A DNA stretch of 64,000 nt from an uncultured cyanobacterium (GCA_963718615.1 OY970368.1:5664001-5728000); one strand, 5' to 3'. Numbered from the stretch's first letter, positions 1,675-60,135 are shown. Notes: a model not told the origin generated them from the letters alone. A program made the numbers and translations.

Positions 1675-2247
1675 ATGATCACCAACAAAAGCCACACTTA
1701 CTTCACCCCCGAAGAGTACCTCGAAATCGAGCGCATCAGCCCGATCAAACACGAATATCTACAAGGTCAAATCGTGGCCATGGCTGGGGCTAGCAAAGCC
1801 CATGTCATCATCACCGGCAATCTTTCAGCCCTTCTGGTCAATCATCTACGGGGAACCGGCTGTATTCCCTACAGCACTGACATGAAAGTGCGAATCCCCG
1901 AGCTGAATCTGTTTTATTATCCTGACCTAGCCGTTAGCTGTGATCAGCGCGATCGCAGCTCTAGCGACGACTTCATCCTTCATCCCAAACTGATGATTGA
2001 GGTTTTATCGGACTCTACCGAAGCCTTCGATCGGGGTGATAAATTCGCAGATTACAAAACAATTCCAGAACTAGAAGAATATCTACTGATTCATCAGCAT
2101 CAAGTCCTCGTTGAGCGATTTCATCGCAAGACAAACAACCTTTGGACTCCTCATATTTATCGGGCTGGAGATTTCGTAGAGTTGGTTAGTATTGGCTTGA
2201 ATCTTGCGATCGCCTCGCTCTACGAAACCCTCGATCAACTTTCATAA
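1675..2247 (+). CDS. Uma2 family endonuclease-fold protein
   Basis: TPEEYLEIE, KHEYLQGQIVAMAGAS, YYPDLAVSC, IEVLSDSTEAFDRGDKFADY. Confidence 0.93.
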   Translation: MITNKSHTYFTPEEYLEIERISPIKHEYLQGQIVAMAGASKAHVIITGNLSALLVNHLRGTGCIPYSTDMKVRIPELNLFYYPDLAVSCDQRDRSSSDDFILHPKLMIEVLSDSTEAFDRGDKFADYKTIPELEEYLLIHQHQVLVERFHRKTNNLWTPHIYRAGDFVELVSIGLNLAIASLYETLDQLS

Positions 2248-48282: not shown

Positions 48283-48855
48283 CTAAGCCTGGAGCGGCAG
48301 CATTGCTTCAACGTTGAACTCGCAGTCAGGAAAGGCGAGCGGTGCGAGGGCTTCGAGCGGTTCCAAAATCAAATGTTGCTGATAACTCTGCTCCGTGGGT
48401 TGACGAAAAACGTGGAGCTGACGCTGGTTCACATCCAGCACCCAGTAATCGGCAATGCCGGAGCGGGCATAGGCCAGTGCTTTCTCGCCAGTGTCGTATT
48501 TAAAGGTTCGATCTGACACTTCCACCAACAAAAATACATCCTCCGGTCGAGGATGATGCTCAATATAATCCAGAGGGTCGGGTACGACGACGGCAATGTC
48601 TGGCTCGGGTTCCGAGTAATCGTTGAGCTGCACTGGGTCTTGGATCCTGACTTGTGCGCGATCGCCACCAAGACGCTGGTCAAAGAGGCGGCGGGTTCTT
48701 TGGGTTCCAGCGCTATGAGCGGTTCCTTTTGCTGCCATGCGTCGCAGTTGTCCATCTAACAGTTCGATCCGTTCATCGGGCTGAAAAATTCCGGCCTCCG
48801 CCATGCGGTGGTAGTCATCAACGCTCAGGGGACGCAGGGCAACGGTGGCGACCAT
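48283..48855 (-). CDS. Uma2 family endonuclease-fold protein
   Basis: SVDDYHRMAEAG, RIELLDG, SEPEPDIAVV, VEVSD, YARSGIADYWVLD. Confidence 0.93.
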   Translation of the reverse strand: MVATVALRPLSVDDYHRMAEAGIFQPDERIELLDGQLRRMAAKGTAHSAGTQRTRRLFDQRLGGDRAQVRIQDPVQLNDYSEPEPDIAVVVPDPLDYIEHHPRPEDVFLLVEVSDRTFKYDTGEKALAYARSGIADYWVLDVNQRQLHVFRQPTEQSYQQHLILEPLEALAPLAFPDCEFNVEAMLPLQA

Positions 48856-49390: not shown

Positions 49391-49861
49391 TTGACTTTGT
49401 TGGTGGCGATCGCCGTTATGAGGAGGGGCGATCGCTTTATAATTCTACAGCCTGTGATTGGGCTGTTGAGGCGTTTGGCTTTGGGGGAGAGGCCGGAACA
49501 TGTGCTGTTGGCGGGGCGTCCGGGTTCGGGGAAGTCTACGACGTTGCAACGATTGTTGTTGGAGTTGGTGGAGGCTGCGCGGGCGGATGAGTCGCAGCCG
49601 ATTCCGGTTTTGGTGCAGTTGAAGGGGAGTTCTCCCATTCTGGAAGCGATCGCCAATGAGCTTGAAAAAGGCGACCTTGAATTCGATCCGAAAGAAATCA
49701 AGCGCTTATTGCGTCATAAACGGCTAATCCTGCTGCTGGATGGTGTTAATGAAATTCCAAATGATCTGCTAAGGAGGGGACTACAAGAATTCAGAAACCA
49801 CTATTCTGATATTTCGATAATTCATCAACTAAATTTCTCACTCTTTCCACTACAACTATGA
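49391..49861 (+). pseudogene. NACHT NTPase fragment
   Basis: Walker A GRPGSGKST, IPVLVQL and Walker B LILLLDGVNE, but only about 150 aa with both ends missing. Confidence 0.75.
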
Positions 49862-50237
49862 AAGCGATCGAAACCACCGCCACCCTCACCGAAACCGGAC
49901 AGCTCACCCTTGACCAACCCCTGACCCTGCCTCAACACAGCCGCGTCCGCATCATCGTCCTCATCCCTGAAGACGAACCGCAACCATTAGAAAATAGCAA
50001 GGGCGAACTCGAAGAAGACCCCAACAGCACCCCCCCACCGAAGACATAATCAAAGGCATCCAACAAGGCTTCCAGGAAGCACTCAGCGGTCAAACGATTT
50101 CCCTGTCAGAACTTTGGGAGGGCATTGATGCAGAAAGTGTTTATTCCAAATCCGATCGCGCAGATGTCAGCAACAAAGTCATTAAAGATGCGATCGCCCA
50201 ATACGAACGTCAGCAACAAACCGACAATGAACCATGA
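49858..50237 (+). pseudogene. RelN-like antitoxin, frameshifted in a C7 tract and fused to unrelated 3' sequence
   Basis: MKAIETTATLTETGQLTLDQPL..RVRIIVL then, in another frame, EDIIKGIQQGFQEALSGQTISLSELWEGIDAE. Confidence 0.7.
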
Positions 50238-50662
50238 GCAATAGCCCCCACAACTCGCCCGCTTTCAACATTGGTTCCGTTGGAACACTCAACACCGGCA
50301 ATGTCACCATTCACGGCGATCAAGTTGGCATTCAGCACAACCACACAACCAGTCCTGAAATAGACGCAGCACTGAAACAGCTTCAGACCTATCTAAACTC
50401 ACTCCAAACGCAACATCCCGAGCCCTCAAGCGAGACCGAAGCCTTAGCCATCATCGATGCGGAGTTCACAGAAATCCAACGTCAGCCCGACCATAGACTG
50501 GCCACGCTTCGCCAACAACTTACTAATCCAGAAGGCCACTTCCAAGCCACCAAAGCAACCCTTGCTGAAATCGCCAAGCACTATCTCGAAGAAAGCGTTT
50601 GGTCCAAAGCCATTCTCACCTACATCGACAAACTCAGTGAAACCCCAGACCAAGGAGAATAG
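50234..50662 (+). CDS. Hypothetical protein
   Basis: 142-aa ORF; FNIGSVGTLNTGNVTIHGDQVG low-complexity start followed by a helical domain. Confidence 0.65.
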   Translation: MSNSPHNSPAFNIGSVGTLNTGNVTIHGDQVGIQHNHTTSPEIDAALKQLQTYLNSLQTQHPEPSSETEALAIIDAEFTEIQRQPDHRLATLRQQLTNPEGHFQATKATLAEIAKHYLEESVWSKAILTYIDKLSETPDQGE

Positions 50663-50909: not shown

Positions 50910-51047
50910 TCCCAGGACATAATCCGCCCCAGCGCCACAAATCCAGATAAGATCCAGAGGCAATTGCCCGACGTTCAGCGCCCTTTTCCATGAAATCGAC
51001 GATCGCCCAGCTCAGGGACCGCTTCGAAACCGCCCTGGTCACCGCCT
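50910..51047 (+). repeat. Duplicate of the argS upstream region and first ~19 codons (direct repeat of 51764-51901)
   Basis: 138 nt with 4 mismatches by manual alignment; contains ATG AAA TCG ACG ATC GCC at 50990. Confidence 0.95.
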
Positions 51048-51053
51048 GTGGGG

Positions 51054-51437
51054 TCAGCGAGCTACGGTGAATTGCCGTAACCATTCCACCAGAGCATCAC
51101 GGCCAGTTTCTCCTGCCGCGATCGCCAAAACAATCCTCTCCTGTTCATCCACAGCAGCACGAATCTCTCTCCCATTCAGAATTAGAAAGACCTCCATCGC
51201 CGCATGACCCGTTCGTTTGTTCCCGTCTACAAAGGGATGATTCATAATGATAGAGAATCCCAGAGCAGCCAACTTCTCAATGAGACTTGGGTAGAGATCT
51301 ACTCCTCCAAAAGCCATTTGGGGCTGAGCGATCGCCGACTCCAGAAGACCCAAATCACAGACCCCAGAAGCTCCACCCGATTGTTCAAGAATCCTGTGAT
51401 GGAGTTGTAGCACCTCCACCAACGTCAGGTAACGCAT
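51054..51437 (-). CDS. doc: Doc/Fic family toxin (death-on-curing)
   Basis: Fic motif [12 protein letters not shown]; [12 protein letters not shown]. Confidence 0.92.
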
Positions 51438-51634
51438 TAGGCTAAGCGCTGATACAGCTCAGTATTCTTGTTTAAGACGTAATTAGTCGCATCCTGAAAA
51501 TCAGCTTGTTGCGCGCTGAGCCAGCTTTCTAAACTGGAACGCAAAAGTATATCTAAAGGAATATTTTGAGACTTCGCCAAATCCTGCAAGGCTTGTAGCC
51601 TCTCTTCTGAAAGTTCGATCGTGACAGACGCCAT
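51437..51634 (-). CDS. Antitoxin partner of Doc
   Basis: Small RHH-like ORF ending [14 protein letters not shown]; overlaps the toxin start. Confidence 0.85.
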
Positions 51635-51843
51635 CGCAGTAACCTTCTTAGTGCCTTTCTGCCCAAATTTTAGCATCAGCACTTGCTTAGCCTATGCGCT
51701 GGATTCGCAAAGTGCTTGACCCAAGCGCCCTTCAAGAAGCCAATGCCTGTAATAACCCTCTAGTCCCAGGACATAATCCGGCCCAGCGCCACAAATCCAG
51801 ATAAGATCCAGAGGCAATTGCCCGACGTTCAGCGCCCTTTTCC

Positions 51844-53598
51844 ATGAAATCGACGATCGCCCAGCTCAAGGACCGCTTCGAGACCGCCCTCGTCACCGCC
51901 TTTGGCCCAGACCTCGCCGGGACGGATCCGATTTTGGTCCCGGCTAGTAACCCGAAATTTGGGGACTTTCAGGCCAATGTTGCCATGTCCTTGGCCAAAC
52001 CACTCAAGGATAAGCCGAGGGCGATCGCCGAGAAGATTGTCGAGAATCTGGATGTGAGCGCGCTGTGCGAGGAGCCCGCGATCGCCGGACCCGGTTTCAT
52101 CAACCTCAAACTCAAGCCCGCCTACATCAACGAACAGCTCAAGGCGATTCAAAGGAGCCATCGTCTCGGCATTGAACCCGCTCAAAATCCCCAGAAAATC
52201 ATCGTCGATTTTTCCAGCCCCAACATCGCCAAGGAAATGCACGTGGGCCATTTGCGATCGACCATCATTGGAGACTCGATCGCCTGTGTTCTAGAATTCC
52301 AAGGCCACGACGTCCTACGACTGAACCATGTGGGGGATTGGGGAACACAGTTTGGTATGTTGATTACACATCTCAAGGATGCCTGCCCAGAAGCCTTGGC
52401 CGACGCGGAATCGGTTAATATTGGTGACTTGGTGGCGTTTTATAAACAAGCCAAACAGCGGTTTGACGAAGACGAAGACTTTAAGGAAACCTCGCGGCAG
52501 GCCGTGGTGGGGTTGCAGTCCGGCGATGCGGATTCGCTTAAGGCTTGGCAGGTGCTGTGCCAACAGTCGCGTAGGGCCTTTCAGGAAATTTACGATCGCC
52601 TCAATATCCGTCTAGAAGAACGGGGTGAATCGTTTTATAACCCCTATTTAGCCGATGTGATTGCAGGTTTGAAAGAGGCCCAACTGCTGGAAACCGATGA
52701 TGGGGCCGAGGTGGTGTTTCTGGAGGGATTTACGAATAAGGAGGGCGATCGCCAGCCGCTGATCGTCCAAAAATCTAACGGCGGTTTCAACTACGCCACC
52801 ACGGACCTCGCCTCCATCCGCTACCGCACCACCCAGGACGGAGCCCAGCGTATTATCTACGTCACCGACGCCGGACAGGCCAACCACTTTGCTCAGGTGT
52901 TCCAGGTGGCAAACCGGGCCGGGTGGGTGCCGGAGGGTGTGAGTTTGGAGCATGTGCCCTTTGGTGTGGTTCAGGGGGAGGATGGCAAGAAGTTTAAGAC
53001 GCGATCGGGCGAGACGATCCGACTGAAGGATTTGCTGGATGAGGCAGTTGTGCGCGCAAGAAAAGACGTGGAGCAGCGCATTGCGGACGACAATCGGGGT
53101 GAAAGCGAGGACTTCATCGAGAATGTTGCGCAGAAGGTGGGTCTCGGTGCCGTCAAATACGCCGACCTGAGCCAAAATCGCACCAGCAACTACATCTTCA
53201 GCTTTGATAAAATGCTGGCGCTCCAGGGCAATACGGCTCCCTACATGCTTTATGCTTACGCACGGGTCAAGAGCATCAGCCGCAAGGGCGAGGTGGATTT
53301 TGCAACGATCGATCCCTCTGCCATCACGGTGGAAACTCCCGAAGAGCTGGCTCTGGCGAAGCATATCCTGCAACTGGATGAAGTTTTGGATGCCGTCGAG
53401 GCGGATCTGCTGCCGAATCGGCTCTGCCAGTATTTGTTTGAGCTGAGCCAAAAGTTCAATCAGTTTTATGAGCAGTGTTCGGTGCTGCAAGCGGAGGAAC
53501 CCCAGCGGACTTCGCGGTTGGTGCTGTGTGATTTGACGGCGCGATCGCTCCAGCTTGGTCTGTCGTTGTTGGGGATTGAGGTGTTGGAGCGGATGTAG
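51844..53598 (+). CDS. argS: Arginine--tRNA ligase
   Basis: [60 protein letters not shown]. Confidence 0.98.
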
Positions 53599-53642
53599 GC
53601 TATGAATGAGCCGAGCCACTTCCCTAACGCGAGGTCCGCCCT

Positions 53643-54257
53643 ATGACTCAGCTACAAGTTAGTCCTTCTGTCAACGAATGGCTCCAGCAGGAACCTGAGT
53701 TTGTGGCGCAATGGCTTCGAGAAGTGGAGAATGGTGGAATTGAGATCCAGGAGGATTTCAATTGGCATGGCTTAGCCCAAGGATCTGCATCACTGGCTCA
53801 AAAGTTTGCTCTAGAGAGAGAGCGTCAGCGGTCTTTACAGTGGGCAGGAGTGGCGATCGCACTCTATGAGCAGCTCATCCCAAAAACACCTGTTCTACAC
53901 CGGAATTCCTTAGACTGTGATTCCTTCGCCCAATCAGCGATGAACCTCAGGGTTAATATGATGCGGGCTTGGGGAGCTTGCCCTGAGCATTTGGTTCTAG
54001 ATCCTAAAATTGTCACAGACTGGTTCTTTCAGCAGTTCAGCCAATCGGCTGAAGAGATTAAGCGAGAAGCAGAGCCCTGGCAAAGACCCGGTATTTTTCA
54101 AGATCGGCAGTACATCGCGAACCATCTTGAAACCCTCAAACATCTGCGCCGTCTCAAAAATTATCTTAATGTAATTGAACCGCTGCTGGGACTCAATAAC
54201 TGGCAGCCCCCAGAAGAATTGGAAGCTTGGCTCTCTCTAAAACCGCTGCTGCCATAA
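53643..54257 (+). CDS. Hypothetical protein (cassette 1 after argS)
   Basis: 204-aa ATG ORF lying between argS and tail copy 1. Confidence 0.75.
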   Translation: MTQLQVSPSVNEWLQQEPEFVAQWLREVENGGIEIQEDFNWHGLAQGSASLAQKFALERERQRSLQWAGVAIALYEQLIPKTPVLHRNSLDCDSFAQSAMNLRVNMMRAWGACPEHLVLDPKIVTDWFFQQFSQSAEEIKREAEPWQRPGIFQDRQYIANHLETLKHLRRLKNYLNVIEPLLGLNNWQPPEELEAWLSLKPLLP

Positions 54258-54298
54258 ACAGATGACTGCACGGTGGGCTCTGCCAAACTCCGGAGAAC

Positions 54299-54351
54299 CG
54301 CTCCATCTCGGCCTATCGTTGCTGGGCATTGAGGTGCTGGAGCGCATGGAG
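54299..54351 (+). repeat. argS 3'-end copy 1
   Basis: Encodes [16 protein letters not shown]; 9 differences in 53 nt from argS 53546-53598, 7 of them synonymous. Confidence 0.92.
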
Positions 54352-54395
54352 GGCTTTTACAATGGTCGGTAAGCTTGAAATTCTTCGCTAATCCC

Positions 54396-54647
54396 ATGAA
54401 TCTACAACTCTCAATTCCAGATTCAGTCATTGCTGCCCTACGTGTTCCCGAACCTCGGGTGCAGCAGATACTTCTGATTGAGCTGGCGATCGCCCTCTAC
54501 CAACAGGAGATTCTCTCTTTCGGCAAAGCCCGAGAACTTGCACAGCTTGATAAATACGAGTTTGGGCAACTCCTAGGACAGCGACAGATCGAGCGCCACT
54601 ACACCATGCTGGAACTAGAGGATGATCTTGCCTATGCCGGTTGTTAG
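54396..54647 (+). CDS. UPF0175 family antitoxin
   Basis: ELAIALYQQEILSFGKARELA, FGQLLGQRQI..HY...LEDDL. Confidence 0.9.
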   Translation: MNLQLSIPDSVIAALRVPEPRVQQILLIELAIALYQQEILSFGKARELAQLDKYEFGQLLGQRQIERHYTMLELEDDLAYAGC

Positions 54648-55134
54648 CAATACATCACCCATTTTGAACCTGGCGATTGTGGGACAGCTCGGCCTCCTTA
54701 AGATGCAGTTCAGCCAAATTTTGGTGCCTTTGGAGGTTGTTGCCGAGCTGAAACCTGACGAACAGCGCCCTGGATCGGTAGCAATTCAACAAGCCTTGGA
54801 CTCAGGCTGGATTCAGTCTCAACCGCTCAGTCCCCAATCACTTCCCAGCTTTACGCTTCTCCGGCAGCACCTAGATCTGGGAGAATCAGCTGCGATCGCC
54901 CTAGCGTTAGAAATCCAGGCCAAGATGATACTGCTAGATGAGCGGGAGGGTCGCAAAACGGCAAAATCTTTAGGGCTGAACATAACTGGACTTCTAGGTG
55001 TGTTGCTTAAAGCCAGAGCAACCGGAACAATACCCGCCTTAAAACCCATCGTCGATGACCTTATGAGTCTTGCAGGCTTTCGGATTTCCCCAGCTTTGCT
55101 TGAACGAATCCTAGAGAATGATATGGGGCCATAG
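54634..55134 (+). CDS. DUF3368 PIN-domain toxin
   Basis: VVSNTSPILNL, LDLGESAAIALA, LLDEREGR, GFRISP. Confidence 0.9.
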   Translation: MPVVSNTSPILNLAIVGQLGLLKMQFSQILVPLEVVAELKPDEQRPGSVAIQQALDSGWIQSQPLSPQSLPSFTLLRQHLDLGESAAIALALEIQAKMILLDEREGRKTAKSLGLNITGLLGVLLKARATGTIPALKPIVDDLMSLAGFRISPALLERILENDMGP

Positions 55135-55140
55135 TTTAAG

Positions 55141-55201
55141 GGCGCGATCGCGACCGCTCGGTTTGTCGTTGTTGGGGATTGAGGTGTGGGAGCGGATGTA
55201 G
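55141..55201 (+). repeat. argS 3'-end copy 2
   Basis: 6 differences in 61 nt from 53538-53598; retains ATGTAG; begins at a HIP1 site. Confidence 0.95.
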
Positions 55202-55265
55202 ATTTTCTAAAATGGTCAAGATAGACCATCCAGGTCTTCGCCTACAAGCCAGTGAGGTTTGCCCC

Positions 55266-55577
55266 ATGACGACCGCCGCAACGCTTCCCGCTCCCATTAA
55301 TATCGGTAGCCTCATTGTTTCCACGCCAGAGGTCGTGGGGGGTAGACCCCGGATTGCGGGTACGCGAGTTTCAGTTCAAAGAATCGTGGGCTGGCATAAG
55401 CAAGGGCTCAGTGCGGAAGAAATCCTAGGGCGTTTTGGCCACCTGACCCTAGCTCAGATCTATGCAGCCCTGACTTACTATCACGCCAATAAGGCTGAGA
55501 TTGAACAGTACTTAGCTGAAGAGGCAGAGGCTTGTGAAGCGCTTCAAGCTCCTGATCACTCTGGGCATGCTGCATGA
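55266..55577 (+). CDS. DUF433 family antitoxin
   Basis: VVGGRPRIAGTRVSV, LTLAQIYAALTYYHANKAEIE. Confidence 0.92.
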   Translation: MTTAATLPAPINIGSLIVSTPEVVGGRPRIAGTRVSVQRIVGWHKQGLSAEEILGRFGHLTLAQIYAALTYYHANKAEIEQYLAEEAEACEALQAPDHSGHAA

Positions 55578-55618
55578 GTTCAATCAGGCTCTATCTAGAC
55601 GAAGACGCGATGATTTAG
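55574..55618 (+). pseudogene. DUF5615/PIN-like toxin truncated after 14 codons
   Basis: ATGA overlap with DUF433; MSSIRLYLDEDAMI* matches the typical RLYLDED start. Confidence 0.7.
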
Positions 55619-55930
55619 TGAATATCGCAGGCTTTTGTATTTTTCCAGACCTATGCGATCGCATAATCGAGACCAAGACAAGGATGAGTATGGCCGCAGA
55701 AGCTTTGTATAAATTGAGATCAAAAATATAAGTGCAGGAATTTCAATCGTTAGAGCAACATTTTTATAATAAGGTCTATCGATCTCATGTGAAGATGTTC
55801 TAGCCTGATACGTTGAGCGAAAAAATCTACGTATTTTCCGGGAACTCTAAAAATTCTTTGTATATATGTAAGATACATTGTTAGCTAAGCCACATGAATT
55901 GATCAAAATTTTCTACTACTTGCTAGCCAG

Positions 55931-56037
55931 TTATAGCAATCCGGTTTGAGCGAGCATACGTATGCTGGTGCTCAAGGATTCATCCAGTCTGGACTTGCCT
56001 CTGAATGATTCTCAGAAATCAGTCTGGATTGCTGTAA
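55931..56037. mobile_element. MITE-like element with TATAGCAATCC-type terminal inverted repeats
   Basis: Left TTATAGCAATCCGGTTTGA; right end reverse-complements to TTACAGCAATCCAGACTGA; no ORF. Confidence 0.65.
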
Positions 56038-56075
56038 CTCATATTTTGTAATAGTAGCTGCTTAGATCCAAGATT

Positions 56076-56732
56076 ATGAATACAGTAGATTCTCAAGTTG
56101 TATATCAAGAGCTAACAAGGATTGCTGGCTATCCTCCTCAAGGAAAGTTCCCTGGAAATTTATCTTTCGATTCAGCAGTAAAATATCTATCCTCAAGACT
56201 GACTAATGAAGAGAAAATAATCGCTCTTACTACAGTTCGATATAAAGGAATTAATTCTTTTCTCGTGATTACACAAAGGCAAGTGATTTGCTTTTCAGAA
56301 AAAGAAACTCTTTTCACAGAAGGAGTAAAAAATATTTCTAAGGTGCTAACAGGAGAAAATGGTCTGATTTTCAAGAGATTGCATGATTTGCATAGCTTCT
56401 ACTTCATCAATTTACATAGTGGCAGCAAATTCATTTCTTCTCTAAAGGTACTTTCGCTAATAATTGAGGAGAAAGGCAAGATCAAGAAAGATGGCCATGA
56501 AGTCAAGTTAGAATTGTTTGCATACTCGTTTTTTGTTTTTTTGGCATTTGTTTTTGGGTCATGTACATATCGTGTTTTCTGAAGTGACAGTCATTCAGGT
56601 GCTGGCTCTGTTCGGGAATGTGACGAGCAGGCTGTTCTCAGTCAAATTGAGAATGAAATTGGACCAACTGTTGATAATCAGGAAGAAATTGATTACGCTG
56701 CACGAAAATTAAAAGCGGCTTGTCGATATTAG
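56076..56732 (+). pseudogene. AT-rich membrane protein (PH-domain-like N-terminus) interrupted by an in-frame TGA
   Basis: 168-aa ORF stops at 56580-56582 just after a TM segment; the same frame stays open 49 more codons to TAG at 56730. Confidence 0.55.
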
Positions 56733-56805
56733 AACTCTTGCACGGATCCCATTTTTGATCTGAGACCCTCATGGTTGCGTTACTCTCTGGTTCATGCAGG
56801 AGCTA
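56730..56805. mobile_element. Degenerate MITE-like element with TAGAcCTCTTGCA-type ends
   Basis: TAGAACTCTTGCACGGATC ... GGTTCATGCAGGAGCTA imperfect inverted ends. Confidence 0.45.
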
Positions 56806-56921
56806 TTGGGATTTACTCAAGGGGACTACATATGCAAGGCGACTGTGCTGCACCACTCAACAGCCTCGCCTTTAACCTCACCCTTATCCAAATTCTCGCT
56901 ACCGGACACACCGACTAACCC
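56805..56921 (+). pseudogene. Decayed partial copy of the 58927-59334 gene
   Basis: Aligns to 58937-59052 (GCAAGG..ACTCAACAGCCTC..TTCTCGC.ACCGGACACACCGAC); contains an indel and a stop. Confidence 0.85.
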
Positions 56922-56948
56922 TTTTCCGTCCATAGTGGGCACCATGGA

Positions 56949-57057
56949 CGGAGGAAAACTCTAGCGGACCTTATGGTTGGTGCTGTGTGATTTGACAGCG
57001 CGACCGCGACCGCTCGGCCTCTCATTGTTGGGAATTGAGGTGCTGGAACGGATATAA
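56949..57057 (+). repeat. argS 3'-end copy 3 (longest, about 36 codons)
   Basis: [11 protein letters not shown]...[14 protein letters not shown]; many synonymous changes relative to 53492-53598. Confidence 0.93.
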
Positions 57058-57342
57058 GCATGTTGCTCATGTCCAGCAGTAAAGTTATTTAAACTACGGC
57101 TGGAGCAAAGCACACGAATTTCGTTAGTATGTCTAGTATTAAAGCACTGGAGCTGATTGACTGACAAAAGTTTGCGTAAATGTTGCTCAAAGTCTCTTAT
57201 AGCAAGGGTTTGAGGCGATCTAGAGGGTATTCTGGCTTTGTTTCGCCTGAATCCTTTGACTGGCAAGCATTTCAGGGATTAGTGATCCATGTTTTGTCAG
57301 TCAATCAGGCACTGGAGTATTACTCGTGAGAACGAAAAACTG

Positions 57343-58800
57343 ATGATGCCCAATGAAAGAGAGTTACTTTTGCAAGAGCAGGTAACTCTCTACAACAACA
57401 TTGCAAAGTTTGGTGATGCTGAAGGCAGATTGCTCGCAGAGTTGCAGATCTTTCCATCCCCTAGGATTCGTTGGTCGTTTGAGCAGTTAGGTGTACATGA
57501 AGCTTGGCTACCCAGGTCAGGAGACTGTTCGGCACCTCAAATTACTGGTCACTTTTTTACCATTGAGAAACCGAAGATAACACAGTATCGTTCAAACATT
57601 GTTGGACCAGCGGAAATCAGAGCAGGAGATACAGCGAGAGCCATTTATGGAGACTTTGATGCCCCCGGCCACTTTTTCAAGTTCTACTTTCCTAATTTCC
57701 GCTGTTTGCAGAAGGCCTTTGGGAAACCAATTTGGAACAAACAGATCGATCCCAGCAGGGGAAATGATCAAGAAGTAGGTATGCAAGAGCACGGACGTTA
57801 CATAGAAGCATCGCTAGACGAAAATTGGAGTATCAAGCTTTTCTCTAGCAAAGATGCTAACAAATGGCTAAATTCAGAAGAAGCCAACATTGGAACACTT
57901 CTAACGACTGAAGGCAGCTTCTATCAAACACATTTCAAGGACATTCCTAAAAATTCACCATCTCCATTACAAGCTTTATCTCTGCGGCAAGTCACTGTAG
58001 TACTGGAGGATTTGGGAAGCTTTATGGCTTTTCCCAATGGCGGATACTTGGGTCCCATATACATAGAAAGTTGGCAGTATTTAGAGGACACTGATAGCTC
58101 CATAGCGGCCGTAGCAAGCCAATATCTGAACACAACGCTAGATAATCTCTCGATTTCTTGGGTCGCAGATGGTATCAAATTACAGCCTTATTTAGAATGT
58201 TTTCCCACGTTCAAAGTAATGCTAAATCAGTCATCTCATGATGGCACTTCGTGGAAAGATACATACCGTTTTGTTTTAGCTCAATATTTTCAGGCAACTA
58301 GTCCAAAATTCCGAGGTTGGCAGGTTCGGGCAAGCAGTATCGGTTCAGCGTTAGAACGTCTATCCGACATGATTTTGGTACAAGATGAGTCTCATGATGA
58401 AAGGAAAGAAAAATGTAATCTACTGTTTGAGCGCGGAAAGGATAAACAAGCAAGACGTGAATGGAATATTGGCAAAGGAGAGGGACAAGAAGATACCAAT
58501 CCAACCAGCAAGCGTTTATGTCTCATGCTTGAGCGCATAGGCTTGACGAAAGAACATGGGTTCTCACAGGACTTAGAGGATACATCAAAATTCTTGACAG
58601 TTAGGAACGAGGCTGTACATCCGAGAGCTATAGGGATAGACGTTAAGGAACGTGACCGTCTCATCTGGAGGGCTGTTCAGTGGGTCGAGGAGGTTCTCCT
58701 GTGGAGATTAGGGTATGAAGGGCAATATTGCGATCGCCTGACTGGTGACTATTTCAATACACCTCGATACGATCTCAATACTCGAAATCCTGACTGGTAG
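57343..58800 (+). CDS. Hypothetical protein with C-terminal HEPN-like motif (ApeA-like architecture)
   Basis: RNEAVH (RxxxxH) at 58603-58620; upstream SALERL helix; LLWRLGYEGQY tail. Confidence 0.6.
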   Translation: MMPNERELLLQEQVTLYNNIAKFGDAEGRLLAELQIFPSPRIRWSFEQLGVHEAWLPRSGDCSAPQITGHFFTIEKPKITQYRSNIVGPAEIRAGDTARAIYGDFDAPGHFFKFYFPNFRCLQKAFGKPIWNKQIDPSRGNDQEVGMQEHGRYIEASLDENWSIKLFSSKDANKWLNSEEANIGTLLTTEGSFYQTHFKDIPKNSPSPLQALSLRQVTVVLEDLGSFMAFPNGGYLGPIYIESWQYLEDTDSSIAAVASQYLNTTLDNLSISWVADGIKLQPYLECFPTFKVMLNQSSHDGTSWKDTYRFVLAQYFQATSPKFRGWQVRASSIGSALERLSDMILVQDESHDERKEKCNLLFERGKDKQARREWNIGKGEGQEDTNPTSKRLCLMLERIGLTKEHGFSQDLEDTSKFLTVRNEAVHPRAIGIDVKERDRLIWRAVQWVEEVLLWRLGYEGQYCDRLTGDYFNTPRYDLNTRNPDW

Positions 58801-58926
58801 ATTGTTTAGCCGCAAATCTCTGATCAACATTCATCCCAGTGCTAACAACCGATCAACGATGATTCAAGACCCCGAACTGCGCGAGCAAGTTGGAAAAATA
58901 GCCCATAAACTGTTGGGAGGTGTGGA

Positions 58927-59334
58927 ATGGGAATAAATTGGGATCGACTCAAAGCACTTCATTTGCAAGGTGACAGGGCCAGTCAACTCAACAGCCTCTA
59001 TTTCAACCTTGCCCGTCTCCAAGTTCTCGCCACCGGACACACCGACGAACCCGTCGCCCTTCACCTCATCCGCGAGAGCCAGTGCTTTATCGAATGGATT
59101 GTCCCAACCCTCGATCTGGAGACAGACGATATCAGCGTTGCCACGTCACTGGTTGATCTTCAGCGCCAACTCAGCCGATGGAAACTGGAGTGGGGGAAGT
59201 GCTGGAGCGAAAAAGAGGCACGGGAGAATCTGGTGACCCAGGCTGCACAATGGTGCGATTTCCTCGGCAGCTTGCATTGCGATCGCCCCCAGAAACCCTC
59301 AATGTCCAGCCCAGAACTGTACCAACAGGTCTAG
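58927..59334 (+). CDS. Conserved cyanobacterial hypothetical protein
   Basis: NLARLQ..HLIRESQCFIEW..LVDLQRQLSRWK; preceded by an overlapping 3' gene remnant (..DPELREQVGKIAHKLLG). Confidence 0.7.
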   Translation: MGINWDRLKALHLQGDRASQLNSLYFNLARLQVLATGHTDEPVALHLIRESQCFIEWIVPTLDLETDDISVATSLVDLQRQLSRWKLEWGKCWSEKEARENLVTQAAQWCDFLGSLHCDRPQKPSMSSPELYQQV

Positions 59335-59377
59335 CAAAGTCGCCCTGCTATGATCGAGGAAGTTCAGAGGACCCCCC

Positions 59378-59986
59378 ATGGCGACATCAGCGCTCACCCA
59401 TCCTCAGCAAGACTGGCCCATCGTGCTTCAGCTCCAACCCGCGTTGAGCCTTGATGACGACCAGTTTTTTGACTTTTGCCAGCTTAACCAAGATTGGCGA
59501 TTTGAGCGTACCGCTGCGGGAGAGCTGATGATTATGTCACCAACCGGCTCAGAAACAGGCGGTTATAACTTTGACTTGACCGTAGAGTTGGGAATCTGGA
59601 CCAGGCGTGACGGCAGTGGCAAAGGGTTTGATTCGAGCACAGGCTTCACATTGCCCAACGGTGCCATTCGTTCCCCTGATGCCGCTTGGATTCGGCAAGA
59701 GCGCTGGGAAGCCATTCCCCCAGAACAACGACGCAAATTTGCGCCCATTTGCCCAGACTTTGTTGTAGAACTGCGATCGGAGTCTGATGCATTAGAGCCC
59801 TTGCAGGCCAAGATGGAGGAATACTTGGATAACGGAGCCCAGCTAGGGTGGTTGCTCGATCGTCAGCACCGCCGTGTCTATGTTTATCGACCAGGGCATG
59901 AGGTGGAATGCTTAGACAACCCAGCCTCGGTGAATGGAGAGTCGGTTTTACCCGGTTTTGTGTTGAGCCTGAGCTTGGTTTGGTGA
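59378..59986 (+). CDS. Uma2 family endonuclease-fold protein
   Basis: FERTAAGELMIMSPTG, FDSSTGFTLPNGAIRSPDAAW, CPDFVVELRS, KMEEYLDNGAQLGWL. Confidence 0.94.
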   Translation: MATSALTHPQQDWPIVLQLQPALSLDDDQFFDFCQLNQDWRFERTAAGELMIMSPTGSETGGYNFDLTVELGIWTRRDGSGKGFDSSTGFTLPNGAIRSPDAAWIRQERWEAIPPEQRRKFAPICPDFVVELRSESDALEPLQAKMEEYLDNGAQLGWLLDRQHRRVYVYRPGHEVECLDNPASVNGESVLPGFVLSLSLVW

Positions 59987-60135
59987 AGCGGGAAACAGGG
60001 TAGACAGACGAAACTCTCCAGGTTTGAGGGTTTTGAGCTGGCTGTAGTGCATGGCGATCGCAAGGTCACTTTCTTACTCTTCAAACCCAATCTCTCTCTC
60101 TCCGGCTATTCGTGCAAGAGGTCTAATTATTCAAG

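Follow-up and report, generated by a model that had tools for sequence, protein, structure and literature searches.

The movement of chromosomal toxin-antitoxin (TA) and small defence modules that carry no mobility genes is poorly understood, and the surroundings of one aminoacyl-tRNA synthetase gene in an uncultured cyanobacterium raise the question directly: how did copies of the end of a gene come to lie, one behind another, among such modules? The gene stands in a window of 64,000 nucleotides (nt; GCA_963718615.1, OY970368.1:5664001-5728000), whose numbering is used for all positions below, within a complete, single-contig cyanobacterial genome of 6.1 Mb and 52% GC (G000 in locus names). 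An intact open reading frame (ORF), which we take to be the arginyl-tRNA synthetase gene argS from the label given to it in an earlier note on this DNA and from its pattern of conservation, is followed by three direct copies of its own 3' end, here called tails, with TA genes and other small genes between and beyond them. The earlier note read this arrangement as an integron-like array that grows in chronological order at the end of argS. We find it probable, with odds of about two in three, that the tails are scars of additive recombination, either a one-sided homologous and illegitimate event (homology-facilitated illegitimate recombination, HFIR) or a Campbell-type single crossover.

The scar type itself, known as 3'-end displacement or insertion with long target duplication, has been described before and is common in this genome; what is particular here is that an essential aminoacyl-tRNA synthetase gene bears a triple array as well as a 5' scar, and that the link to TA modules is unusually dense across one genome. 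A single complete genome with about a dozen curated scars, 75 clusters of local direct repeats that are unique, a triple array and polymorphism makes both the recombination route and the role of addiction testable. For annotators it means that short in-frame copies of gene ends behind housekeeping genes are recombination scars, and not att sites or small genes.

Displaced ends of argS and the modules between them

The argS 3' end and the three tails form a four-copy direct family in a single register, and the three downstream copies that the earlier note had pointed out are confirmed by repeat search, alignment and genome BLAST (Table 1). All three tails end at the position of the stop codon, and they start at -53, -63 and -109 relative to the argS stop. 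When the whole genome is searched by BLAST with the argS end, tails 2 and 3 are the sole significant matches (the next best has an E value of 0.04); tail 1, which agrees with argS at 44 of 54 nt, is unlisted there and was recovered by the repeat search. Tail 1 also matches the argS ends of four of six relatives, and it encodes a 14-residue stretch as argS does, with the stop replaced by Glu. In the tails the stop is lost, the reading frame is shifted or interrupted by a stop, or the upstream gene is missing; argS itself is intact. Among themselves the four copies are 74-89% identical, which is about the distance between the genera compared.

That the DNA between the tails is inserted, as had been supposed, is borne out by argS loci elsewhere. 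A tail was sought at 93 other argS loci from relatives and metagenomes, six close relatives included, and none was found (0/93); in the six relatives both the 3' and the 5' end of argS are single-copy. A Uma2 orthologue (80% identity at the amino acid (aa) level) follows argS after about 85 nt in relative G002, a Uma2 fragment lies 2.2 kb downstream of argS in relative G004, and the Uma2 gene at the right of the array is probably the ancestral right-hand neighbour of argS. None of the 40 relatives searched belongs to the same genus, and a metagenome search with ArgS gave a best identity of 74%.

Contigs from four public runs (X1 to X4) show that the locus varies. These runs provide contigs, and the parts that the contigs do not cover (for example 56766-57079 in X1 and cargo C in X3) are uninformative; two joints, 53552>57448 in X2 and 53217>55163 in X4, were left out because one of their sides has fewer than 30 letters. 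In X1 and X3 position 53598 is joined to 54391 with 43 other letters between, so that the UPF0175/DUF3368 pair comes straight after argS and both the 204-aa ORF and tail 1 are absent. The argS-proximal module is thus polymorphic among samples, with limits set by the repeats, and the comparison of cassette content among strains that the earlier note had called for reveals a module absent exactly between repeats. Further to the right, X1 carries the tail 2 junction (54940-55300, about 99% identical), and it matches the window at about 99-100% in cargo C and in those parts of the ApeA-like gene that it contains. The argS 3' part of X1 is only 92% identical to the window and the start of its TA pair 94%, from which it follows that the recombination history of this block differs from that of the DNA further right.

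The upstream end of argS carries a duplication as well, which encloses a Doc toxin gene and a gene that would be its antitoxin, judging by its position upstream of Doc. Only 3 nt separate the stop codon of Doc from the displaced 5' copy (51051/51054). In the relatives homology to the window begins at 51775-51785; in the X3 and X4 contigs the match starts at 50914-50917, the outer edge of the displaced 5' copy, and includes the junction with Doc. The DNA to the left of this point in X3 and X4 is unlike the window.

The nature of the differences between the tails and argS suggests what the tails once were (all P values in this comparison are against simulated neutral change). Over the last 45 nt, tail 1 has seven synonymous versus one non-synonymous codon (P 0.001), tail 3 eight versus one (P 0.0003) and tail 2 two versus one, which is not significant. 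At full length tail 1 (54 nt, 10 differences) has seven synonymous versus three non-synonymous codons, stop included (P 0.015), close to the nine differences in 53 nt, seven of them synonymous, that had been counted before; tail 3 (99 nt) has 10 versus eight (P 0.017). In both tails the excess is weaker than in the last 45 nt. Of the earlier description of tail 3 the roughly 10 synonymous changes stand, and eight non-synonymous ones have to be set beside them. The excess in the last 45 nt supports the proposal of the earlier note that tails 1 and 3 would once have been functional ends of other argS alleles. A variant stretch that includes an L>R and a Q>P change, GCGACCGCTCGG, is present at 55150-55165 and 57006-57021 and is found neither in argS here nor in the six relatives.

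The strictly chronological order that had been read into the array is doubtful, both because two non-synonymous changes are common to tails 2 and 3 and because tail 3 stands beside a duplicated fragment of the 135-aa gene. Tail 3 begins about 20 nt after this truncated 5' fragment, in a mirror image of the argS 5' scar that suggests entry from the right-hand side; it seems, from this arrangement, that tail 3 and the ApeA-like gene may have entered together, anchored on the right-hand genes.

Table 1. Features at the argS locus, in window positions, with strand and the evidence for each
Feature	Position	Strand	Evidence or remarks
Displaced argS 5' region (~80 nt upstream and first 62 nt of argS)	50910-51051	+	142 nt, 96% identical to 51764-51905
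Doc (Fic/Doc family) toxin gene	51054-51437	-	Pfam PF02661, E 2.6e-20
Putative Phd/CopG-like antitoxin gene	51437-51682	-	Sub-cut-off Pfam matches (DUF6290, CopG_antitoxin)
Functional argS 5' region, second repeat arm	51764-51905	+	Repeat search
argS (see text for the name)	51844-53598	+	Intact ORF, 584 aa; full-length matches of 86-93% aa identity in family relatives
Current argS 3' end (repeat reference copy)	53492-53600	+	Repeat search, alignment, genome BLAST
Cargo A, 204-aa orphan ORF	53643-54257	+	No Pfam, NCBIfam or PADLOC match
Tail 1, displaced argS end, stop changed to GAG	54299-54351	+	Repeat search, alignment, argS ends of relatives
Cargo B, UPF0175 antitoxin-type gene	54375-54647	+	Pfam PF03683, E 8e-24
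Cargo B, DUF3368 (PIN-like toxin-type) gene	54622-55134	+	Pfam PF11848, E 4e-13
Tail 2, displaced argS end	55139-55201	+	88% identical to argS, E 1.3e-17
Cargo C, DUF433 gene	55266-55577	+	Pfam PF04255, E 3e-21
Cargo C, AT-rich segment, 34-38% GC	55580-56582	+	Single-copy in genome
Cargo C, stub like the DUF3368 C-terminal coding part	55608-55648	+	73% identical to 55053-55093
Cargo C, 168-aa ORF in AT-rich segment	56076-56582	+	No family match (Pfam, NCBIfam, PADLOC)
Truncated 5' fragment, second copy of 135-aa gene	56806-56932	+	~76-78% identical to 58937-59063
Tail 3, displaced argS end, last ~109 nt, 2-nt indel	56949-57059	+	80% identical, E 1.1e-21
Cargo D, 503-aa ApeA-like HEPN protein gene	57289-58800	+	Family labels of homologues
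135-aa gene	58927-59334	+	ORF; no family match (Pfam, NCBIfam, PADLOC)
Uma2-family gene	59378-59986	+	Pfam PF05685, E 9e-44

The family labels that had been given to these genes (UPF0175, DUF3368, DUF433 and Uma2) agree with Pfam. The 204-aa ORF has only two homologues (82% identity) among 5.8 billion proteins, and a search among genome contigs for relatives of its locus found none. Tail 2 starts 5 nt after the DUF3368 stop (55134/55139). The AT-rich segment of cargo C looks foreign in origin; the miniature inverted-repeat transposable elements that had been suspected in it are not supported, since 55580-56075 is not repeated anywhere else in the genome and contains only a single weak 21-nt inverted pair. 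The 503-aa protein had been called HEPN-like, a description borne out by its 75 homologues, which carry the precomputed labels PF27216/PF26308 and the UniRef name 'Apea-like HEPN domain-containing protein'; scans of the protein itself with Pfam, NCBIfam and PADLOC gave no match.

The same scar at other genes of the genome

A genome-wide screen for local direct repeats, with copies that are 40-400 nt long, share at least 75% identity and lie 300-10000 nt apart, returns 335 pairs, of which 129 are unique to their locus (78 clusters). With the further filter that unique pairs have at least 250 nt between the copies and that the repeat contains the end of an outward-running gene, 32 of 121 pairs remain. 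Inverted repeats passed through the same filters are rare by comparison, with nine pairs against 335, two unique pairs against 129 and none against 32 at gene ends.

From this screen a list of 11 loci other than argS was chosen by eye, and is to be read as a curated list and not as a count; at least 11 genes besides argS thus carry direct repeats of a gene end, 53-223 nt long and local only. Those at 3' ends concern the genes for CobN/ChlH (cargo ParE and a partner; repeat 157 nt, 99.4% identical), MscS (HSDR_N-like; 133 nt), an NB-ARC/TPR protein (XisH/XisI; 133 nt, 95%), HsdM (HepT/MNT; 130 nt), an nSTAND-WD40 protein (a MazF pair, then a PIN pair; about 220 nt, two tails), VanY (an RTX protein; 140 nt) and a protein of 350 aa (DUF5615, PIN and insertion sequence (IS) copies; 107 nt). 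The 5' ends concerned are those of the genes for a GDSL lipase (BrnT; 87 nt), urease alpha (Tox-PL-2 and an IS; 80 nt, 96%) and sigma-70 (a 233-aa gene with no function assigned; about 61-70 nt), and the last locus, with a 78-nt repeat and DUF4058 as cargo, lies at a 274-aa gene and a PurU-like gene that converge. Relatives are single-copy at chlH (three loci) and at ureC (two to three loci). The cargo at the scar loci is single-copy in the genome, except for one IS in the urease-side insert, and transposition of cargo within the genome was rejected on this ground.

Three of these places deserve a closer description. The nSTAND-WD40 locus (G000:C1:3506725-3509581; L051 3025-5881) is a second multi-tail array, in which the 3' end of a 1481-aa gene (about 220 nt) is present three times with the MazF and PIN pairs between. 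At the convergent pair (G000:C1:344396-345732; L045 2996-4332) the 78-nt repeat holds the 3' ends of both genes, and each copy completes one live gene. At G000:C1:4215631-4216606 a PIN/antitoxin pair lies between two copies of what seems to be the entire 97-nt spacer of two convergent genes, one copy beginning 5 nt past one stop codon and the other ending 7 nt before the second gene.

The recurrence of the scar at unrelated genes means that argS is not special. The view that both ends of argS serve as landing pads survives in part: the 5' duplication on which it drew is there (142 nt, 96% identical), and the dedicated landing pad is not, the genome-wide screen having found the same scar at no fewer than 11 unrelated genes. 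The same screen applied to 1.1 Mb of argS loci from other organisms gave three matches, a paralogue pair, a 41-nt match and a metagenome contig (L084 8112-9446; ArgS 64% identical) in which an MNT and HepT-like_2 pair lies between repeats of about 215 nt that include the argS 5' end. This last is an independent instance of the same scar at argS.

Genes in the repeat-bounded intervals are small (median 122 aa versus 278) and TA families are prominent among them, with nine of the 25 PIN genes of the genome inside unique local direct repeats that span 2.6% of it (P 8e-9). Genes of the Uma2 family show a similar tendency. The genome has 95 matches to PF05685, three of them in the window (1708-2208, 48283-48855 and 59378-59986); a Uma2 gene lies within 1.5 kb of four of the 11 gene-end scars, where 0.85 would be expected (P 0.007), and 11 of 94 are inside the repeat-bounded intervals.

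Routes by which the scars may have formed

Under additive recombination the slot between argS and Uma2 would be variable accessory DNA. Donor DNA from a diverged relative, with argS and a different module downstream of it, would be anchored by a homologous crossover within argS, and its far end would be joined illegitimately inside the resident argS 3' end; alternatively, a circle bearing an argS-end fragment and cargo would integrate through one crossover. The product would be a complete argS that closes with the incoming 3' end; behind it would come the cargo, and behind the cargo the old 3' end, now a dead tail. A like event at the 5' end of argS would give the Doc/Phd-like module, and a probable right-hand anchoring would place tail 3 and the ApeA-like gene beside the duplicated 5' fragment of the 135-aa gene. 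The blocks would later spread by ordinary homologous recombination and be lost by recombination between repeats, and TA cargo may be over-represented because addiction counter-selects loss through the repeats. Either route accounts for three traits of the scars: an inner repeat limit that is arbitrary, an outer limit that coincides with the end of homology between lineages, and an upstream copy that is a foreign but functional allele. Genes for ComEC and DprA are present in the genome, which is consistent with DNA uptake. The route, by transformation or as a circle, is inferred from the product, and in the product the two are indistinguishable.

Several observations weigh against this account. 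Tail 2 lacks a synonymous excess, with two synonymous versus four non-synonymous codons over its 63 nt. Tails 2 and 3 have L>R and Q>P in common and none of seven functional genes has either change, a pattern that calls for gene conversion or for an insertion that hit a tail when it was already dead. The X1 argS end has only three of the 10 tail 1 variants and hence is not a pre-insertion allele, and the gap in X1 and X3 may also be a deletion by recombination between repeats. A donor genome with argS beside the 204-aa ORF was sought and none was found, and sliding-window identity to six relatives disclosed no recombination breakpoint in argS, a result that is itself uninformative. In five of 15 cassettes (Doc, DUF3368, HepT, MazF and PIN) the inner junction lies 3-9 nt past the toxin stop, which is tighter than random joining suggests, and the very similar repeats (99.4%, 96% and 95%) fit a true target duplication equally well. 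Together with the Uma2 enrichment, the closeness of junctions to toxin stops leaves room for a more specific process.

One such process would be a true long target duplication, in which staggered breaks and repair synthesis, perhaps started by a Uma2-like nuclease of host or cargo, copy 50-220 nt of the target and the two copies then diverge in place. The near-identical repeats (157 nt at 99.4%, 142 nt at 96%, 133 nt at 95%) speak for it, as do the compact cargo with its junctions close behind toxin stops, the VapBC-like pair between copies of an entire 97-nt spacer, the proximity of Uma2 genes to the scars and the precedent of restriction-modification genes, for which such insertion has been described with its mechanism left open (PMC2853133). 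A synonymous excess such as that of tails 1 and 3, however, is unexpected if a dead copy decays in place, the repeats differ in length (53-223 nt), their outer limits fall where homology to relatives ends, and the Uma2 enrichment may merely mark variable slots. On balance we regard target duplication as an unlikely source of the argS tails.

Site-specific integration is less probable still. In this reading the argS 3' end would be an attB site used by a recombinase acting in trans, as in tandem tRNA-gene islands or in a staphylococcal cassette chromosome without recombinase at rlmH, and the direct repeats that end at a gene 3' end, the tandem array and the four tyrosine-recombinase loci (PF00589) of the genome would fit. 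These four loci, which might act in trans, all lie more than 1.8 Mb from the window, and a genome-wide search for serine recombinases (PF00239) found none above the cut-off. Pfam scans, in which not every transposase family was searched, detected no mobility genes in the cargo or in its neighbours within about 12 kb, nor is any segment of the window multi-copy; the statement of the earlier note that no recombinase or transposase is visible in the window therefore holds, on the Pfam scans and the genome searches for the two recombinase families. The three tails moreover start at three different points, no common core was found among the repeats of the 12 loci, whose sequences are unrelated, and the cargo is without an att-like motif. 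An ordinary site-specific island was rejected for want of a constant crossover core, on the same tail starts and the same 12 loci. The HIP1 motif (highly iterated palindrome 1, GCGATCGC) was considered as a junction motif and dropped: it is present in four of the 12 repeats and, at 1.44 per kb genome-wide, is not clearly enriched over its genome frequency.

Chromosomal integrons commonly hold TA cassettes, and the array resembles theirs in its tandem, promoter-proximal growth by small cassettes that are mostly single operons. Unlike them it has no intI, attI or attC, and its 'sites' are coding copies that differ from locus to locus. The folding of the tails is no better than that of shuffled sequences (z -0.3, -0.7 and -1.2; no attC covariance model was run). 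The integron-like array of the earlier note is thus not upheld, given the lack of intI in the window, of a common core, of a constant tail start and of attC-like folding, and we rejected membership among integrons since no PF00589 match lies in the window and the tails are in-frame copies of argS codons without a hairpin signal. A diversity-generating retroelement was likewise rejected, as A stands in the tail at only one of the 10 positions where tail 1 differs from argS and the cargo has no match to a reverse transcriptase family.

That the modules are decayed remnants of integrase-bearing islands once attached at argS, with the integrases and most genes since deleted, is very improbable: the truncated toxin-like stub, the truncated gene fragment and the AT-rich DNA of cargo C do show decay, but each module at argS, and each of those at the 11 or more other loci, would have to have lost its integrase independently while keeping an intact TA pair, the modules are tightly bounded at 0.7-2.3 kb, and X1 and X3 differ from the window by the clean presence or absence of one 0.8-kb module.

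A further step beyond additive recombination can be imagined, in which TA and small defence modules would be integrase-free mobile cassettes, with the duplicated host-gene end as a portable homology arm that permits entry by RecA alone wherever the host gene is conserved, with addiction protecting the duplication and with Uma2 possibly making the initiating breaks. We put this forward as a speculation that is doubtful at present.

Known systems and the wider neighbourhood

The closest parallels come from four published systems. Insertion with long target duplication was described for restriction-modification units, with repeats longer than 30 bp and an open mechanism (Furuta, Abe, Kobayashi 2010, PMC2853133). 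Most of its cases come from species with natural competence, and a single one from a cyanobacterium, Microcystis (PMC2853133). Both it and the argS array involve small addictive units without a mobility gene, long and variable locus-specific repeats and a single-copy empty site; all four defining features of long target duplication or 3'-end displacement, namely a single-copy empty site, long variable local repeats, no mobility gene and an intact neighbour, are found at argS. The argS cargo differs in being of TA and defence type, and toxin-antitoxin genes go without any mention in PMC2853133. It differs also in its three stacked tails and 5' duplication, and in that two of the tails appear to be diverged functional alleles and not copies of a resident target.

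At Rhs loci, C-terminal displacement through a circular intermediate and homologous recombination has been proposed (Jackson et al. 2009, PMC2935791). There too an intact gene is followed by strings of 3' fragments, with direct repeats of varied length and differing cargo downstream; an Rhs event, unlike one at argS, brings a new toxin tip with its immunity gene, whereas argS receives an equivalent end and the cargo is unrelated to it. For the effector-immunity arrays of the type VI secretion system of Vibrio cholerae, HFIR was proposed and a comparison with integrons drawn, and no integrase was found (Kirchberger et al. 2017, PMC5361080). Those arrays share with argS the successive insertions beside a conserved anchor, with the old module displaced downstream; the genes and organisms are others, and selection is thought to keep the immunity genes in place there, where at argS this would probably be TA addiction. 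Single-crossover integration of a circle in an E. coli conjugation assay, finally, gave duplications of 109-950 bp (PMC3240628), so that a duplicated homologous locus flanks the inserted DNA as at argS, although the assay used a laboratory plasmid construct and not a natural cassette.

A non-exhaustive full-text literature search, with supplements excluded, found no account of TA modules that lie between duplicated ends of housekeeping genes.

Ordinary genes surround the array out to about 12 kb, among them those for an isopropylmalate-type dehydrogenase, a prepilin peptidase, an acetyl-CoA carboxylase subunit, a CHAT-TPR protein and a TPS-domain protein. A further slot (49391-50662), upstream of the displaced 5' copy, carries additional small genes, among them an ORF resembling a RelN-type antitoxin (49858-50049; NCBIfam E 3e-16, below cut-off) that overlaps an ORF of 156 aa.

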